Below are positions 3,309-45,506 of a DNA stretch of 46,993 bases, one piece after another. Made by a program: the position numbers and the translations under genes. The notes beneath the pieces were generated by a model. It was not told where the DNA came from. It ran no database searches and saw nothing but the letters and a program-made list of their open reading frames with translations. Location of the stretch: IMG/VR virus record IMGVR_UViG_2529293060_000009; one strand, given 5' to 3'. Within the stretch, counting starts at the first letter, position 1, and each line of letters starts with the position of its first letter. The DNA comes from a virus. Its lineage: Duplodnaviria > Heunggongvirae > Uroviricota > Caudoviricetes.

Positions 3309-3884
3309 CTACGGCAGTGCTGGCCATTCAATATCCTGTGCAGTTGACGTATCAACACGGTTCAGCAATACCCGATACTTTTTCCATGCTTCCAGCAACG
3401 AGATTTCTTCCTCCGTTGCAATTTCCAGATCTGCAGCATCCTGAAGCGGCGCAATATGCTCACTGGCTACCTGCATCAGGTTGTTTTTTGTTTCTTCCGC
3501 CTCCCGGATCCGGAACAGTTTTTCTGCTTCCGTATCCTTCACCCAGGCTGTGCCGTTCCACTTCTGAAACTCCCCTTCCGGCGATAACCAGGTAACATTT
3601 TCCGGTAACGGACCGAGTTCAGAAATAAATAACGCGTCGCCGGAAGCCACGTCATAAACCGTTTTACCCCGATGATCTTCAACGAGATGCCACGATGACT
3701 CATCACTGTTGAAAACAGCCACGAAGCCAGCCGGAATATCTGGCGGTGCAATATCGGTACTGTTTGCTGGCAGACCTGTATGAGGCGGAATATATGCATC
3801 ACCTTCACCAATAAATTCATTAGTTCCGGCCAGCAGATTATAAATTTTTATGGTCCGTGGTTGTTCACTCATTCTGAATGCCAT
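3309..3884 (-). CDS. tfa: Tail fiber assembly protein Tfa
   Basis: 191-aa ORF ([31 protein letters not shown]...) nearly identical to my recollection of lambda Tfa. Start overlaps stf stop. Confidence 0.88.
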
Positions 3885-34916: not shown

Positions 34917-35966
34917 TTAGGCCAGCACACCAATTGCCAGCGCGCGATCGATAAATCGAAAAATCAGCTCCAGTTGGGAGCCATACTTCTCTTCAAATGC
35001 CACGGTATCCGTATGCAACTCGTCGTGATGCTTTCTGCACAAAGGCAAAACAAAGAGATCATGTGCTTTGGTTCCCATTCCGCCCTGCCCGTGACCAATC
35101 AGATGATGCGGATCGTCGGCTGGCATACCGCAGCAAGCACACGGCTGTATCTTAACCCAGCGTGTGTATTTCTCCTTAACCCACCGGTGACGTTTAGGCA
35201 GCTTCATGAAAGATTCCGGAGACTCTGGATCAACGGTGATGCTTACCACCGTCTTTTCCTGTGATGGGTTTTGTTGCTGGTGGGCGTGAGGCAACGGTGC
35301 AAGATTTTTTGTGCGCTGTTTCAATATGCTGGTGGCGGTCTGCTCTCCCGGTACGATGTCGCTTTCGCGGTACACCGAGCAGATTTTTTCCGCTGGTAAT
35401 CCCAGCGAGCGACGTAATACCGCTTCCGGTAGCGCGTCCGCCAGCTGATTGCGGACCGCCCACCAGGATAATTCAGCCAGAGATAATTCACGCTCCTGCG
35501 TACCGCTTATTGCGTGACCGATGACGTCAATCATCCATGCTGACAGGTTTTGATGAGCAAGTTGCTCGAGTGATTCGGATGTCTGGTCACGCAGCTGGTT
35601 GTCGCAGTGCCAGCACAACACCATTGCGCCGGTACCATATCGGTGAATAACGGTTTCGCTGTGATGATAATCGCCGTGTGGCCACTGGCAGGATTTAATA
35701 TGGCGCAACAGCCAGTCAGACAATGCACCAGCACCACCAGCAGCACGAATTACCCGTGCGTTACTGAAAAACGGCAGCAATGTTTTGTCTTCCACCAGCG
35801 GCTGGCGAACGGCAGGAACGACCCCGGACGGCAGATTACGCATGCTTTTCGGTTCCGGCTCCACCAGTACCCGGGTATTGTGGAATACCGGCATGGATTC
35901 ACGGCCCGGCTTAACGACCACCAGCCCGAGTTCCGGTACCAGAACAGGTCGAAGTAATACCCGCAC
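34917..35966 (-). CDS. DUF968-type protein with C-terminal HNH-like Cys/His cluster (nin-region protein)
   Basis: C-terminal [21 protein letters not shown]...CRKHHDELH. Located immediately upstream of Q as in DLP12-like nin regions. True start may be internal. Confidence 0.55.
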
Positions 35967-35967
35967 G

Positions 35968-36357
35968 TTACCTCCAGAGGCGTTGCTGGAATGTACGGGA
36001 CGGACGCGGTGGGCGTTCGGAGTAAGGCAATCTGACTGAGATTATCCAGTGACGGTAGTCGAGGCTAAGGGCTTTTTTAACCTCGTATCCGCGCCTGCGG
36101 TAACACTGAATTATCCATTCAGCCTGCTCTTCAGTGCATGGTGGATGCTGGAACCAGTCCGATTTGAATGCATGAAAACGCCGTCCGCACCTGCTGGCAA
36201 AGACGGCAGAATCATCAGAATTGTGTAATTTGGTATCGTGCGCCATCGGTTGTCTCTGCTGGCGCAGCAGGTGCCAGTTGTTCAGGCTGGCGTATAAAGT
36301 ATAAATAAACTGGTTCCAGTGTAAAGCCCCTACATTAATGGAATAAAAGTCAAACAA
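35968..36357 (-). CDS. Hypothetical nin-region protein
   Basis: ORF track only. Likely starts at internal Met (MAHDTKLHNSDDSAVF). Confidence 0.35.
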   Translation of the reverse strand: MFDFYSINVGALHWNQFIYTLYASLNNWHLLRQQRQPMAHDTKLHNSDDSAVFASRCGRRFHAFKSDWFQHPPCTEEQAEWIIQCYRRRGYEVKKALSLDYRHWIISVRLPYSERPPRPSRTFQQRLWR

Positions 36358-36704: not shown

Positions 36705-36860
36705 TTACTCCTCAGGTTCGTAAGCTGTGAAGACAGCGACCTCCGTCTGGCCGGTTCGGATTCGTACCTCGCAGAGGTCTTTCCTCGTTACCAGTGCCGT
36801 CACTATGACGGTTAAACAGATGACGATCAGGGCGATTAACATCGCCTTTTGCTGCTTCAT
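36705..36860 (-). CDS. hokD: Hok-family type I toxin (HokD/RelF)
   Basis: MKQQKAMLIALIVICLTVIVTALVTRKDLCEVRIRTGQTEVAVFTAYEPEE, identical by recollection to K-12 HokD. Confidence 0.85.
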   Translation of the reverse strand: MKQQKAMLIALIVICLTVIVTALVTRKDLCEVRIRTGQTEVAVFTAYEPEE

Positions 36861-37475
36861 AGCCTGCTTCTCCTTGCCTTTCGGCACGTAAGAGGCTAAC
36901 CTACATGTGTCTAGCATGAAATTGGCCTCAGATTAATGTTAAGCGTCTTGCAGGACGCGTAATGTTAACTGGGGCTTTTCTCTATCTGCCTTTGGTGTTC
37001 ATGCCTGAGGCAGATAGCCTCAAGCACCCGCAGCAATTCTACTTAACTCACGTCACCTCGCCAATATAAAATCAATCAGAAAGGCGATCCGTAAGAACAA
37101 CAGCAAGACAATAAATTGCCATTACAGCCGCAATAGCTAGCGCACATTTGAGAACCAGCACGACAACCTCCTGTATTGGACGTACACCAGTCCTGATAAA
37201 TATGAGGCTGTCTCATCATTGATTCAATATAACTATTGGGTATAGTTTCTGTGATTTTGTTCTGTAGAAATGGAACACAACAACCAGTCTCCACCAGCAC
37301 TTCTTTAAATACGCCAAGTCCGACGCAAGCTAACCTTCTAGTCCGCTTTGAGCGAACTGTGGAAGCTCGCAAATGTTGTTACATCTGATGAAGGCATTAC
37401 TCAAAGGAGGGGATAGTAGTCAACGTGGAGCAGGCCATGTTAGTATTTTTATACAATTCGACTAAGGGAAAAACA

Positions 37476-38345
37476 ATGAGGCTTTACATAATAGGAAATG
37501 GATTTGACATGCGTCATGGCTTACCAACAGGATACAAGCACTTTAAGTCGTATGTAGAAAAAAATGACCAAGATCTATATGACGCGATAGAAGAATACAT
37601 TCCTGCTGGGGACGAGTGGAATGAGTTAGAAAATGCTTTAGGTGAAATTGATTATGAGCTTATCCTTCAAAACAGTGAGATATTTTTGGCTTCATACAAT
37701 ACCGATGATTGGAGCGATGCTTATCATCACGATTACCAATATGAAGTAAATAAAATCACACAAATGCTGTCAGCTCGTTTGAAGGAGCAATTCGCTGATT
37801 GGGTTAAAGGGATTAACATAGCCGATGCTTACAATCCTAAGCAATACATCCCGCCCATACCAAGAGAAAGCATCTATTTTTCATTTAATTATACAAATAC
37901 CTTGCAGCAGATCTATGCCGTTCCAGACGAGCAAATCATACATATTCACGGCAATTGTAGTTACGATGACGATCTCATACTTGGTCATAGTTTTAGGGTG
38001 GAAAAGTCACTAAATCCATATATAGGACCGGATCAAGATACAAGAATAGCAGAGGCATACGACAGAATAAACGAATACTTCGGTAATACATTCAAGCCCA
38101 GCGAAGACATAATTAAAGAAGAAAACGTTTTTTTCTCATCGCTTAAAAATGTGGACGAGGTCATCGTTTTAGGCCACTCGCTCGCCGAAGTTGACGGTGA
38201 ATACTTTACTGAAATAAATAAAAGCATCCAAGAAAATGCTCGATGGATAGTTGCTTTATATAGAGGTGAGAAAAAATCAGGCAGTTTAGAAGATTATGGT
38301 ATCAGAGGCTCAAATATTTCTTACGTACAGTATGAAGATATCTGA
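37476..38345 (+). CDS. AbiH-like abortive-infection family protein (N-terminal IIGNGFD motif)
   Basis: 290-aa low-GC ORF beginning MRLYIIGNGFDMRHGLPTGYKHFKSY, the motif I associate with the Pfam AbiH family. Good RBS (aagggaaaaacaATG). First gene of a two-gene cassette on the opposite strand from its neighbours. Confidence 0.5.
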   Translation: MRLYIIGNGFDMRHGLPTGYKHFKSYVEKNDQDLYDAIEEYIPAGDEWNELENALGEIDYELILQNSEIFLASYNTDDWSDAYHHDYQYEVNKITQMLSARLKEQFADWVKGINIADAYNPKQYIPPIPRESIYFSFNYTNTLQQIYAVPDEQIIHIHGNCSYDDDLILGHSFRVEKSLNPYIGPDQDTRIAEAYDRINEYFGNTFKPSEDIIKEENVFFSSLKNVDEVIVLGHSLAEVDGEYFTEINKSIQENARWIVALYRGEKKSGSLEDYGIRGSNISYVQYEDI

Positions 38346-38428
38346 ATGAGACTTCATATTATAACTATAATTATGTAAAAAAGGCTGGTATTTTATACCT
38401 TGAGGAAAATAGATAAGAGGAATGAGGT

Positions 38429-39826
38429 TTGGTTATGATGAATTATACTGATGAGTCAACTTTTCTTGAAAAGTACAAACCGTTTAGGAAGTTTTGGACA
38501 ATTTTATCACCTCATTATGTATCTTTAATGCATGCACTTGCCAAAATGATAAGGGGAGGGAATCCAATTCAAGAACTACCTTCCAATGATGAGGATTTTC
38601 TTGCAGAGTATGAAACCTGTCTCAAAAATTGGAAAGACTCACAAAAAATCATATCTTTTGAGATTATTATTCGGCTGAGAGATATAAAAAGATTGGAAAC
38701 TGAAAAAAAAGAGCACCATCGAAACAAGGATAAAGAAAATAAAGAAAAGTGTATTGATGAAATAAGTTTAAAAAAATTTGAAATTCTTATTCTTCGCCGT
38801 TGTATTGACTCAATAATTTGGAGCATTCTTGATGAAGAACACTCTAGTTTGCGGCGTTTACCTATTAATGCAAGCAATGACAATCTATCAGAAGATAACA
38901 TAATTGATTCTATGGTCGCAGCCGATCTTATCAACCAGGACAAACACTCCGTAGCGATTGTCTCTGACATGAGCACATTTGTTCATGTGGGAGATTTAGT
39001 CACCTTTAATCTACTGGATGGCTTCCAGCTCGTGGAAGTTAAAACAGGTGAAAAGAATAATGAGCTTTATGAAGCTGCTGAATTTTCTGTTATCTCAGAA
39101 TGTCCGCACTTTGAAGAAAACTTCATTAACAATATGCCTGATAATGATGTTAAGCAATTTAATCGCATAAAAAGGCAAATCATTCGTGGCATGAATGTTC
39201 TGGAGGCGATTAATACTGGCGAGGGCTTTGACAACTTTCATCAGTCTAAAGTTAAAATCAATGAGATAGATCATCCGTCTGAATTTTATACCCACCGCTT
39301 AGTTAAAATGTGGGAGATTATTCGCGGAGGAAAAAATTGGGCAATTGATACTATTGATGAATGTTTGTTCTTAGGTATGTACCGTGATTCTGAAATGGGC
39401 TTTGTTGCCTTCAATGGATGGATGGATAGTCTCGGTATAAAAAGCCCTGTTGTGAATATAAATGATTCATTCTTTGACCCTTTGTCTCGACCATTTATGA
39501 GTTTGCATCTGCCAACTGAAATGCTCTCCGATCTCATGTCGGGACAAATAATCATCGTCATGTGTTTTGACAATGAACTTTTTTTTCACCGTGCTAACAA
39601 AACGTACCCGGGTTTATATCTCCTTAGCGATGCAGCAAGAACAAAGCAGCCATTAGAAAATATTCTTCGTGTTGGTTCACAAGGGATAGCTTCTTACGTA
39701 GATGGGAATACCAGCTTTTTAGGTAATGGTATTGAATCCCGTATCCTTTTCGATCAGCAACGACCCGACAACATTATTGAGTGGAGCTATGCTAGAAGCG
39801 ATCTCAAAAAGCAACATGAAGCATAA
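38429..39826 (+). CDS. Hypothetical 465-aa protein with a PD-(D/E)xK-like nuclease motif, partner of the AbiH-like gene
   Basis: Low-GC ORF 83 bp downstream of the AbiH-like gene, with RBS. Central segment ..SVAIVSDMSTFVHVGDLVTFNLLDGFQLVEVKTG.. fits the D...(D/E)xK pattern of restriction-type nucleases. Confidence 0.4.
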   Translation: MVMMNYTDESTFLEKYKPFRKFWTILSPHYVSLMHALAKMIRGGNPIQELPSNDEDFLAEYETCLKNWKDSQKIISFEIIIRLRDIKRLETEKKEHHRNKDKENKEKCIDEISLKKFEILILRRCIDSIIWSILDEEHSSLRRLPINASNDNLSEDNIIDSMVAADLINQDKHSVAIVSDMSTFVHVGDLVTFNLLDGFQLVEVKTGEKNNELYEAAEFSVISECPHFEENFINNMPDNDVKQFNRIKRQIIRGMNVLEAINTGEGFDNFHQSKVKINEIDHPSEFYTHRLVKMWEIIRGGKNWAIDTIDECLFLGMYRDSEMGFVAFNGWMDSLGIKSPVVNINDSFFDPLSRPFMSLHLPTEMLSDLMSGQIIIVMCFDNELFFHRANKTYPGLYLLSDAARTKQPLENILRVGSQGIASYVDGNTSFLGNGIESRILFDQQRPDNIIEWSYARSDLKKQHEA

Positions 39827-40088
39827 GCCGTTGGATGGGATTTCCCATGAATTGCCATGGATAATCTAGACACTTCGAGCCGTTGATAATGTTGATTTTC
39901 GTATTCTGTCGGTGGAGTATCCCGAAAGGTATAGAGCAAAACCTGGAGAAAACACACAGCATCCCATTTTAATCTTTAACTCTGACCTTCCATAATGTCC
40001 GCTGTTGGCACAAAGCGGACAACCACGCTAGCTCTACCCTGTGCCACAAAATGTCAATTTGCATCTGAACTAATGCACTTTAATCTCG

Positions 40089-40511
40089 TCACTTCAATAA
40101 ATACCGAACATCCCCCTGATAAAACGACAATATGCGCTGCATAACTTCGCTTTTACGACACTCAGTACAAATCATATTATGACGCCTGTCGTAACGACGT
40201 ATTCCTCCATCAGGTAATGACCAGATAAGGTCCGGATCAACCGCAGATGGTTTCTTCAGCTTTGCCCTTGAGAGCTTTTTACGGGCATTTTGCCAGTCCT
40301 TACGCGCCTGTTCAGACGGGAATAACCCGTAACCAGAGTTGTATACATCGCCACTGGCAACCAGCTCTCTGGCCAGAACGTTCATCATATATTTTGTTGC
40401 CCCAGTTTTAGTTTCCAGTTGTCTTAACGTCTCGCGCCCACTCTGGCGTACGAGTTCAACAACCTGCCCTTTAATTTTTTCCCGCTCTTCTTGTGTAAAA
40501 ACTTTTGCCAC
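40089..40511 (-). CDS. Hypothetical early-region protein (possible DNA-binding protein with C-terminal Cys pair)
   Basis: 140-aa basic ORF directly downstream of the replication initiator gene. Confidence 0.4.
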   Translation of the reverse strand: MAKVFTQEEREKIKGQVVELVRQSGRETLRQLETKTGATKYMMNVLARELVASGDVYNSGYGLFPSEQARKDWQNARKKLSRAKLKKPSAVDPDLIWSLPDGGIRRYDRRHNMICTECRKSEVMQRILSFYQGDVRYLLK

Positions 40512-40551
40512 AAGCCCTCCTGAAAATTACCTCATGACCAGAAATTAACAC

Positions 40552-41628
40552 TTACCCCCTGAAGCCCGGCGGAATTTCGTTATCCGGTTCAGAAATATGA
40601 TTCACACAACGCTGGTTGTTCGTGCCGCTTACCGGGAGCAACCAGGGGTTCTCAAAATTCCGGTCCGGTCCAAAAAACGTCGTCGCTCGCTGAACAAATT
40701 CCGTTCCCGTTTTCCCGGTAGCCGCCAAGTATCTTGCGTAACGCCTCACGCCATCCAGCATGGCCTCTGGTGGCACCCCCTCGCGTAATCTGGCCTTCCA
40801 GGCACTGAAAGCGGATTTCTTCGGGTTTGCTCCGGCACGCAACGGGTACTCCCGCCAGACCTGTTCGAACACATCCGGATAATCCACTCGTCCCACAGAC
40901 TGCCCGGTGTTTTCCGGGACTACCCGATCGGCTTCCCGCTGAATGGCGGAATCGGCTTCGGGCTGCTGCAGTTGGTGTGATTGCTCCGGCCTTGCGGTCA
41001 TCACCTGCTGCACAGCGCCCGAATCGGCTTTCAGCGCATACGCTGAATCGGCTTCCGGTGTCGTGCCTGCTGGCTGACCAAGATTGACGGTCTGAACATC
41101 CCCTGCCTGGTTCGTGGCGTTTTTTACGCCATGGACCATAGTGTTTTGATCTTCTTGATCTGTATCTTTATCTGTATCTTTATCTGTCGTGACTCGTCGT
41201 GACATGTGCGTGACATTTCGTGACGCGCCGTGACAATCGCCATTTTGTTCCCGCTTTCTTTCCCTCTCTCGCTGCGCCCTCTTGCGCTCTGCAGGAGATT
41301 TTGCGGTTTGCGAAATATTGCCGTTGTCCTCTTTAAGCACCTGGCGTTTTTCCCATCCAGTGATTAAATCACCATCAAGTACCCGCCCCTGCATCGTCTG
41401 CAAAATTGAATCAATCACCTCTTCTGTCACGTCGAGCGCACTTGCCAAATCTTCTGTCGTGACATCAATGTGACCTCGCGTGACATTTCGTGACGCGCTC
41501 ACCAAGAGGTGGATATACACTGCCATCACTGTTGCAATTGGCTGCCCTGACACCCTGGCAATTGTTCGCCACTTAGGGTCATTTGGCATGTCATGCCATA
41601 ATCTGAGCCAGGCGTTAGCCATACTCAC
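40552..41628 (-). CDS. Replication initiation protein (lambda O analog, YdaU-like) containing internal iteron arrays
   Basis: 358-aa ORF in the O position, downstream of the cro-like and ydaT-like genes. Two clusters of 10-11 bp phased cgtgac repeats lie inside the coding sequence. Confidence 0.6.
   Translation of the reverse strand: MSMANAWLRLWHDMPNDPKWRTIARVSGQPIATVMAVYIHLLVSASRNVTRGHIDVTTEDLASALDVTEEVIDSILQTMQGRVLDGDLITGWEKRQVLKEDNGNISQTAKSPAERKRAQRERERKREQNGDCHGASRNVTHMSRRVTTDKDTDKDTDQEDQNTMVHGVKNATNQAGDVQTVNLGQPAGTTPEADSAYALKADSGAVQQVMTARPEQSHQLQQPEADSAIQREADRVVPENTGQSVGRVDYPDVFEQVWREYPLRAGANPKKSAFSAWKARLREGVPPEAMLDGVRRYARYLAATGKTGTEFVQRATTFFGPDRNFENPWLLPVSGTNNQRCVNHISEPDNEIPPGFRG
41188..41234. 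repeat. Iteron cluster 1: five cgtgac repeats phased at 10-11 bp, preceded by a tandem atctgtatcttt duplication
   Basis: Seen directly: cgtgac at 41188, 41198, 41209, 41219 and 41229. Confidence 0.65.
41451..41493. repeat. Iteron cluster 2: four (c)gtgac repeats phased at 10-11 bp, containing a 21-bp exact copy of part of cluster 1
   Basis: gcgtgacatttcgtgacgcgc occurs at both 41207..41227 and 41473..41493. Confidence 0.65.
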
Positions 41629-43500: not shown

Positions 43501-43542
43501 TGAACCGCCCCGGTTTTCCGGGAGAGTGTTTTATCTGTGAAC

Positions 43543-44442
43543 TCAGGCTGCCAGACCACCATTTCCGATGGAAGCGTAATATGCCTTTTCCGCTTCTGCC
43601 GGCGGGATATGACCCAGTCGTTCCAGCAACCGTCGGTTATTGTACCAGTCCACCCACGTCAGTGTGGCCAGTTCCACTTCGGCGCGGTTTTTCCAGCTCT
43701 TACGATGTATCACCTCCGCTTTATAAAGTCCGTTGATGCTCTCCGCCATCGCGTTGTCATATGAGTCGCCTGTGCTGCCGGTTGACGCCAGCAACTCTGC
43801 ATCCTTAAGCCGCTGAGTGTATGCCAGCGACACATATTGTGACCCCTTATCTGAGTGATGGATGGTGCCCGACGGGCGACGGGCCCACAGCGCCTGCTCC
43901 AGTGCATCCAGCACGAACGTCGTTTTCATCGACGATGAGACCCGCCAGCCCACAATGACGCCGGCGAACACATCGATGATGAACGCCGCGTAAGCGAAGC
44001 CCTGCCAGGTGCTCACATACGTGAAGTCAGCCACCCACAGCTGGTCGGGGCGTTCTGCCACGAACTGGCGGTTCACCCGGTCACCCGCAGCGGCTTCTTT
44101 CCGGCTGACTGTGGTGCGGACCTTTTTACCCCGGCGCACACCGGCAAGCCCCATCACCTTCATCAGCCGTTCTACTGTGCACCTGGCCACGGTCACCCCC
44201 TCACGCAACAACTGGCGCCAGACCTTGCGCACACCGTACACGCTGTGGTTTTCATCGTACACGCGCTGTATCTCCGGCTTCAGCAGGTCATCACGCTGTG
44301 CCCGCTGACTGCGTTTATCCGGATGCCGTTGATGCGCACGATGCCGGTAATACGTTGACGGGGCGACAGCCAGCTCGTGGCATACCGGTCCGACCCCGTG
44401 CGCACCACGCAGGGTATCCACCAGAGGCGCTATTTTTTCCAC
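43543..44442 (-). CDS. IS629-like transposase OrfB (copy 2)
   Basis: Same as copy 1 OrfB except [10 protein letters not shown] versus [10 protein letters not shown]. Confidence 0.85.
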
Positions 44443-44756
44443 AGGCGGTCGAACTCCGCCTTCGCAAAATACGCGGAAGCCTGGCGCAGGATATCGTTGC
44501 TGCGGCGCAGTTCGCGGTTTTCACGCTCCAGTTCCTTCAGACGCTGACGTTCAGTGGTGCTCAGTCCGCCGTCACCTGCACCGGCATCGCGCTCATACTG
44601 ACGCAGCCAGGTACGCAGGGTCTCAGGCGTACAGCCGATTTTAGGGGCGATGGAGCTGATGGCCGCCCACTGCGAGTCATAGTCATTCTGGCTTTCGATA
44701 ACCATACGAACGGCCCGCTGACGGACCTCAGGGGAAAAGCGCGTATTTTTAGTCAT
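44430..44756 (-). CDS. IS629-like transposase OrfA (copy 2)
   Basis: Identical to copy 1 OrfA. Confidence 0.85.
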
Positions 44757-44813
44757 CCTGTTTACCTCTCTCTCAAGGAGTTTAGTCTCCAGGATTCCCG
44801 GGGCGATTCAAAC

Positions 44814-45453: not shown

Positions 45454-45506
45454 TTTCTGGTGACGTTTGGCGGTATCAGTTTTACTCCGTGACTGCTCTG
45501 CCGCCG
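45454..45506 (+). ncRNA. dicF: DicF small regulatory RNA
   Basis: tttctggtgacgtttggcggtatcagttttactccgtgactgctctgccgcc followed by a T-run. Matches my recollection of the 53-nt DicF RNA and sits immediately upstream of dicB. Confidence 0.85.

Follow-up and report, generated by a model that had tools for sequence, protein, structure and literature searches.

AbiH of Lactococcus lactis reportedly goes back to Prevots in 1996. In this abortive-infection family a single gene makes up the system, and its members are described from mobile elements and defence islands (PMC13064643). Passages of three sources place AbiH among the immune SIR2-like proteins, propose nicotinamide adenine dinucleotide (NAD+) depletion and state the mechanism to be unknown (PMC13064643; bioRxiv 10.1101/2024.09.18.613514; PMC12322248), one of them assigning it to the immune SIR2 subfamily ‘SIRim’ (bioRxiv 10.1101/2024.09.18.613514). 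DS-37 comes from the DefensePredictor study, a 2025 preprint and a 2026 paper (bioRxiv 10.1101/2025.01.08.631726; PMC13092281). Here we analysed a 46,993-nucleotide stretch of Caudoviricetes DNA (IMG/VR record IMGVR_UViG_2529293060_000009, hereafter the window) and found the two families next to each other: two co-oriented low-GC genes on the plus strand, gene 1 at 37476-38345 and gene 2 at 38435-39826, lie amid the minus-strand early genes of a Qin-like lambdoid prophage. Judged by its profile match, gene 1 is a full-length member of the AbiH family, and gene 2 is DS-37.

We conclude that this locus is most probably a small defence island of two autonomous single-gene anti-phage systems side by side, and not a two-component system, because DS-37 defends when cloned alone, close copies of AbiH are found solo, and relatives of gene 2 are found solo or with other systems. 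An earlier note on this DNA had correctly picked out the defence locus from raw sequence, as a candidate in the early region of the prophage, and the published phenotype of gene 2, experimentally defensive as DS-37, bears it out (PMC13092281). The same note had suggested that the pair could be an undescribed two-component variant of AbiH; this is not supported, given that gene 2 defends alone, that AbiH copies of 91% and 75% identity have no gene 2 beside them, and that gene 2 relatives are solo or otherwise paired. The features of the locus are as follows:

37340-37475, plus strand: upstream leader or promoter region travelling with the AbiH gene (shared left homology boundary)
37476-38345, plus strand: gene 1, AbiH-family abortive-infection protein, 289 aa (Pfam PF14253)
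38346-38434, plus strand: AT-rich intergenic spacer of 89 bp between gene 1 and gene 2
38435-39826, plus strand: gene 2, DS-37 (WP_000982358.1), 463 aa, single-protein anti-phage defence gene (DNA identity to the RefSeq locus)
38891-39097, plus strand: gene 2 residues 153-221, a putative PD-(D/E)xK core with three strands between two helices
38966-38968, 38993-38995, 39035-39037 and 39041-39043, plus strand: gene 2 codons for D178, D187, E201 and K203, respectively
39827-40021, plus strand: 3′ tail of the mobile cassette, where homology with the Klebsiella and IncFIB cassettes ends

The DNA of gene 2 is 100% identical to the RefSeq locus encoding WP_000982358.1 (463 aa), and its translation in the window is the sequence printed in Table S8 of the DefensePredictor paper (PMC13092281). 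Gene 2 is DS-37 (working identifier SC24), an identical protein without any difference at the protein level. In Table S6, SC24 is a single coding sequence (CDS) at 26984-28375 of NZ_QOXM01000003.1, entered as ‘defensive TRUE’ and ‘Predicted novel defense gene’, and Table S7 gives −log(EOP) values (EOP, efficiency of plating) of 4.32 for Bas69 and 1.94 for SECphi27 (PMC13092281). Because SC24 was cloned as a lone CDS and was defensive, gene 2 defends without abiH. DS-37 is thus a validated single-gene defence, which its authors place in the PDDEXK class; within the passages of their paper covered here, we found no DS-37 mechanism, mutants, trigger or target and no discussion of the adjoining abiH (PMC13092281). 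A literature search for WP_000982358.1 gave no match in main texts and matches only in supplementary tables. The earlier note recognised no family for gene 2, which has meanwhile been published as DS-37 (PMC13092281). One small correction to the note concerns the distance between the two genes: the better start of gene 2 is ATG 38435 (GAGG 7 nt upstream), which is the RefSeq start, rather than TTG 38429, and the gap is 89 bp from the former instead of the 83 bp counted from the latter.

Gene 1 matches the Pfam AbiH profile PF14253 with E=6.6e-69 and 233.3 bits (cutoff 30.9) over profile positions 1-258 of 260. A score of this kind over the whole model is far beyond chance, and the significant match upholds the AbiH-like assignment that had first been made from the IIGNGFD motif. 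The match to the AbiH model of PADLOC is much weaker (1.3e-27) and comes in three separate stretches. The likeliest start is ATG 37476, with an AAGGGA ribosome-binding site 6 nt upstream and most homologues being 289 aa long; the RefSeq entry, WP_001297700.1, begins at the earlier ATG 37437. Invariant across 31 homologues, down to 42% identity, are G7, N8, G9, F10 and D11, then N138, Y139 and T140, H158 and G159, and G233, H234 and S235, and by sequence N138 and H158 sit in motifs that appear to resemble the catalytic Asn/His of SIR2.

Compared with the Lactococcus lactis AbiH and PF14253, the likeness of gene 1 lies in the full-length profile match and the N-terminal GNGFD loop, whereas the gene 1 clade is enterobacterial and sits on lambdoid prophages and on IncFIB plasmids with phage-type genes. 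To the SIR2-type immune effectors (ThsA, DSR1/2, SIRim) gene 1 can be likened through the placement of AbiH in the literature and through the putative N138 and H158 motifs; it differs from them in having no fused sensor domain, and NADase activity for AbiH is what we infer.

For gene 1, the support for autonomy is genomic and comes from solo copies. An AbiH 91% identical stands alone in defence islands of Morganellaceae, beside Septu-like/PDC-M01 and nSTAND genes, and one 75% identical stands alone in Serratia; no gene 2 relative was found within 4 kb of these copies. Homology with the solo Morganellaceae copy covers 37340-38372 (about 90%) and ends 27 bp past the stop codon, and its left edge is shared with the two-gene block.

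Gene 2 relatives also occur on their own, and at least 12 of the 28 sampled homologues are solo. Solo relatives at 37-61% identity lie in P2-like prophages (at the gpS-gpV junction, following gpU, or adjacent to gpD), close a cI-int operon as its last gene, neighbour Gabija in Aeromonas, or are carried by Mob and Rahnella plasmids. Other homologues have partners different from AbiH. One type lies 16-25 bp downstream of an Abi_2 gene that scores as PADLOC PD-T4-5 (1e-31 to 3.5e-35), a system that is said to stem from Vassallo in 2022. Further homologues lie 17 bp downstream of a DUF3644 gene scoring as PDC-S19 (8e-71) and 124 bp upstream of a HEC-08-like gene (1.6e-55), and on the Bacillus cereus plasmid NZ_CP129006.1 (L056:3060-6166) an AbiK reverse transcriptase (1.3e-196) is followed 35 bp on by a DS-37-like gene broken into three open reading frames (ORFs). 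This last pair adjoins an ABC-three-component system.

The PADLOC models matched by these neighbours (PD-T4-5, PDC-S19, AbiK and HEC-08) each stand for a single protein; the four share no sequence relationship with AbiH or DS-37, and are relevant only as alternative neighbours. PD-T4-5 itself, a gene described from a plasmid and distantly related to AbiF/D, gives abortive-infection (Abi) defence and is, like AbiH, a single-gene Abi-type system (PMC9519451). In a neighbour-joining tree of gene 2, the partner types are scattered over the tree, and pairing with AbiH is confined to the clade at ≥85% identity; elsewhere, each gene occurs without the other. Collectively, these distributions and the published phenotype argue for two systems that each stand alone.

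Some of the relatives sit in settings of their own. In P2-like prophages (L058:2135-5464, L059, L060 and L038), the DS-37 homologue comes third in a co-oriented operon of CI repressor, integrase and DS-37, with a gap of 2 bp after int, an arrangement that would imply expression in the lysogen. A distant homologue of 678 aa (L068:5001-7037) carries a 250-aa N-terminal extension for which Pfam gave no match; its gene shares 4 bp with the end of a SRAP (YedK/HMCES-like) gene and adjoins an ImuB/DnaE2-type error-prone polymerase cassette. These surroundings are a DNA-damage context rather than a defence context.

A word-indexed search recovered relatives of gene 2 in only 48 clusters, all from Enterobacterales or Aeromonas, and an exhaustive profile search recovered 681 family representatives at E≤0.001, mostly 430-500 aa long. 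Ten family representatives bear only the name ‘hypothetical protein’. A scan of the GTDB species-representative genomes gave only 3 loci, of which two are tiny contaminant contigs. Ten distant relatives were scanned for Pfam domains, with none found apart from one sub-threshold GGDEF match, and in the longer family members (669-690 aa) no fused AbiH or Abi_2 domain was found.

We then ask what kind of protein DS-37 is. A nuclease-like D...(D/E)xK signature had been noticed in gene 2, and it is indeed there: the window encodes both IIGNGFD in gene 1 and VGDLVTFNLLDGFQLVEVK in gene 2 (residues 185-203). Across 102 gene 2 homologues, down to about 20% identity, D178, D187, E201, K203, G205, R244, Q248 and P444 are invariant, and an invariant D...D...ExK over so many homologues places the signature far beyond chance. 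The spacing from D187 to E201 varies within the family from 12 to 17 residues. An AlphaFold2 model of gene 2 (pLDDT 84.4, pTM 0.86) has an N-terminal helical hairpin (52-132), a helix (153-167), three strands (172-176, 188-192 and 196-200), a helix (206-221) and a C-terminal alpha/beta domain. The motif residues map to strands 188-192 and 196-200, and in the model the invariant acidic residues and the lysine appear placed where a PD-(D/E)xK site would be. The spacing of the motif, its setting in a helix, three strands and a helix, and the complete invariance of D187, E201 and K203 are textbook features of PD-(D/E)xK proteins. The DS-37 authors list a PDDEXK assignment, for which HHpred matched residues 154-204 to NERD with a probability of 0.47, together with ‘replicated TRUE’ (Table S8; PMC13092281), and the matched residues are the same region that we mapped independently.

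The fold searches do not confirm this assignment, and so the nuclease reading is drawn from the motif, from how well it is conserved and from the secondary structure. In Pfam, NCBIfam, PADLOC and PHROGs, gene 2 had no credible match (best E=0.2 in Pfam, and a marginal E=0.15 in PHROGs). No PDB sequence was matched by phmmer with gene 2 or by the 102-sequence family profile, and Foldseek of the model against the PDB gave no significant match (best E 0.12), with no relatives of the C-terminal alpha/beta domain found by structure searches. A profile match to PD-(D/E)xK families was likewise missing in Pfam and by hhalign, in which the family profile reached probabilities of <1% against single Mrr_cat and PDDEXK_4 proteins. 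Shedu SduA/DUF4263 and NERD-domain proteins, examples of single-protein PD-(D/E)xK defence nucleases in which the N-terminal domain is regulatory, share with gene 2 the motif pattern (hhh-D, a turn, then hhhExK), a single polypeptide, a mobile-element setting and an extra N-terminal helical domain; by analogy, the extra helical domain of gene 2 could gate the nuclease. Gene 2 differs from them in lacking a DUF4263 or NERD Pfam match and in adding the large C-terminal alpha/beta domain, and a PADLOC scan of the 102 family members gave a marginal SduA match in 1/102 (E=0.007).

With these negative fold searches taken into account, we regard nuclease chemistry for DS-37 as fairly likely. A rival explanation is that gene 2 is not a nuclease: its conserved D/D/E/K residues would have another role, such as binding a ligand or a metal within a new fold, and its defence would be non-nucleolytic. 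That a confident full-length model has no significant structural match to any PD-(D/E)xK structure, that the 102 family members have no credible Pfam, PADLOC or PDB sequence match, and that NERD reached a probability of only 0.47 in the published HHpred match (PMC13092281) all speak for it. We nevertheless hold it to be unlikely, since the motif spacing, the helix/three-strand/helix order and the absolute invariance of D187, E201 and K203 fit PD-(D/E)xK, and, according to the DS-37 authors, structure predictions for their PD-(D/E)XK proteins align to the catalytic core of EcoRI (PMC13092281).

Next, we consider whether the two genes are coupled. Several observations weigh against their autonomy. 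The spacing between AbiH and gene 2 is nearly constant (88-90 bp) across all loci that carry both, and neither a consensus terminator nor a convincing sigma-70 promoter was found in the 89-bp spacer, so that both genes may share one transcript in the prophage. Furthermore, the block is kept as a unit in three mobile-element backgrounds, namely E. coli, Klebsiella lambdoid prophages with different neighbours (HD-domain protein, lambda-P/DnaT), and IncFIB plasmids with phage-type genes (DNA ligase, PhoH, Gp49) from Enterobacter, Klebsiella and Raoultella, with 88-93% nucleotide identity over both genes and the spacer. Gene 2 relatives are found repeatedly 16-35 bp downstream of Abi-type genes (Abi_2, DUF3644 and AbiK). 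One of these pairings, that with Abi_2, turns up on two branches that lie apart in the gene 2 tree and has co-diverged, Abi_2 being 57% identical and the adjacent gene 2 43% identical; its persistence through such deep divergence hints at a functional benefit of linkage. Finally, our literature search found no phage test of this enterobacterial AbiH clade in E. coli.

The repeated place of gene 2 relatives behind Abi-type genes, the Abi_2 pairing and the conserved block would suit a facultative coupling, in which DS-37-family genes are add-on modules that cooperate with any upstream Abi-type gene (AbiH, PD-T4-5/Abi_2, PDC-S19/DUF3644 or AbiK). They might, for example, form a nuclease layer that is triggered by the upstream effector or backs it up, covering phages that escape or inhibit it, and protection would be more than additive even with each gene able to act by itself. 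The position upstream of the HEC-08-like gene also counts towards such cooperation. However, unrelated defence genes generally cluster in defence islands and prophage hotspots and functional coupling is not required for this; the solo homologues are numerous; and DS-37 by itself gives 4.3 logs of protection (PMC13092281). We therefore consider this coupling improbable, both in general and in the form just given. The genes travel together across the three backgrounds and do not co-occur across divergent homologues, the pair being confined to its one clade.

An obligate two-component system, in which AbiH senses or signals and the PD-(D/E)xK protein is the effector, or the reverse, and neither works alone, would account for the co-orientation, the constant spacing of about 89 bp and the near-perfect co-occurrence of full-length copies in complete E. 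coli genomes (gene 1 in 65 and gene 2 in 64 of 5426), but it has next to no chance of being right: DS-37 is defensive as a single CDS (PMC13092281), near-identical AbiH is found without gene 2, gene 2 relatives lack AbiH in every clade except the one at ≥85% identity, and the E. coli copies are all ≥99% identical, so that their co-occurrence reflects recent common descent only.

Homology with the Klebsiella prophage cassette covers 37341-40021 (88.5%), and that with the IncFIB-plasmid cassette extends to 39848. About 50 further E. coli genomes have no gene 2 and keep of abiH only 5′ fragments, which span 7-61% of the gene. Several E. coli genomes have abiH split by IS1 insertions with gene 2 intact, and in one genome gene 2 is split. 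Locus L028, a candidate for a truncated AbiH beside an intact gene 2, was discarded, because it carries the same cassette, disrupted by three single-base indels that are probably sequencing errors.

For two autonomous systems, the following course of events can be proposed. An autonomous AbiH module would have picked up an autonomous DS-37 gene on its 3′ side, and the resulting block would then have spread among temperate elements, that is, lambdoid prophages and IncFIB plasmids with phage-type genes. In the prophage studied here, the two genes follow each other head-to-tail and are inserted against the strand of their neighbours, with the replication genes on one side and the hokD/NinG-like region on the other. 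Gene 1 would act as a SIR2-like AbiH whose phage-triggered NAD+ consumption aborts infection. DS-37, for which defence as a lone gene has been demonstrated, has three parts in the model, a long N-terminal helical hairpin, a central PD-(D/E)xK-like core and a C-terminal alpha/beta domain, with a putative core site of D178, D187 and E201-x-K203, and R244 and Q248 on the following helix. It would be a self-contained PD-(D/E)xK-type nuclease, autoinhibited until a phage cue arrives, with either the helical N-terminal hairpin or the C-terminal domain sensing infection; nuclease chemistry, trigger and target are here what we infer.

Turning to the surroundings of the cassette, the plus-strand ORFs of the window run over 37425-38345 (internal ATG 37476, MRLYIIGNGFD...) and 38429-39826, and all other sizeable annotated genes between 34917 and 42442 are on the minus strand (DUF968, hokD, DUF977, replisome organizer, YdaT-like, helix-turn-helix regulator). 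GC content is 0.32-0.40 over 37250-39750, compared with 0.54-0.56 at 35000-36250 and 0.56 at 40500-41250. The ORF list and the GC profile thus agree with the initial description of a low-GC pair on the strand opposite to the neighbouring prophage genes. The segment matches E. coli chromosomes at 100% identity and lies there within a Qin-like lambdoid prophage; the cassette is flanked by DUF977, replisome organizer, YdaT and cI-cro on one side and by hokD, DUF968 (NinG-like), RusA and antiterminator on the other. The remainder of the window is made up of modules for tail, head and lysis, which belong to this prophage as well.

Two direct 1310-bp copies of an IS3-family insertion sequence, one base apart in sequence and each with an Rfam ALIL frameshift pseudoknot, are located at 32459-33768 and 43501-44810; their size would fit IS629. 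They bracket a 9.7-kb early region that contains the cassette, and they are the high-GC peaks in the GC profile of the window. A composite transposon of the two copies carrying the cassette was considered and rejected: 3-bp target duplications flank each copy separately, GTT at one and AAC at the other, and therefore they are two separate insertions.

The sok antisense RNA (Rfam RF01794, 119.9 bits) is on the minus strand at 36855-37029, as part of the hokD type I toxin-antitoxin locus; it is to the left of the mobile AbiH block, about 310 bp from its start. Other Rfam matches are the DicF small RNA (45455-45506, plus strand), a cspA-type thermoregulator 5′ untranslated region (27888-28305, minus strand, cspI region) and the IS009 RNA (3343-3541, minus strand), none of them unusual for a Qin-type prophage. 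The lysis-proximal region of the prophage contains another strongly AT-rich stretch (30000-31500, GC 0.30-0.37); strain MDR_56 has TolA-like genes annotated in the part that matches it, with the coordinate mapping shifted by the insertion-sequence copy of the window.

Taken together, both genes of this locus are already described defence genes, AbiH since 1996 and DS-37 since the 2025 preprint. Beyond the covered passages of the published papers, our analysis adds the set of invariant residues, the size of the family (681 representatives), a catalogue of hotspots and partners, and the homology boundaries of the cassette assembly. D178, D187, E201, K203, R244 and Q248 are direct targets for mutagenesis in DS-37. 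The recurrence of DS-37 relatives behind different Abi genes provides a testable lead on synergy between defence genes, a lead and not a finding; if facultative coupling were true, the cassette of AbiH and DS-37 would be more than two neighbours and would work in synergy as a unit.

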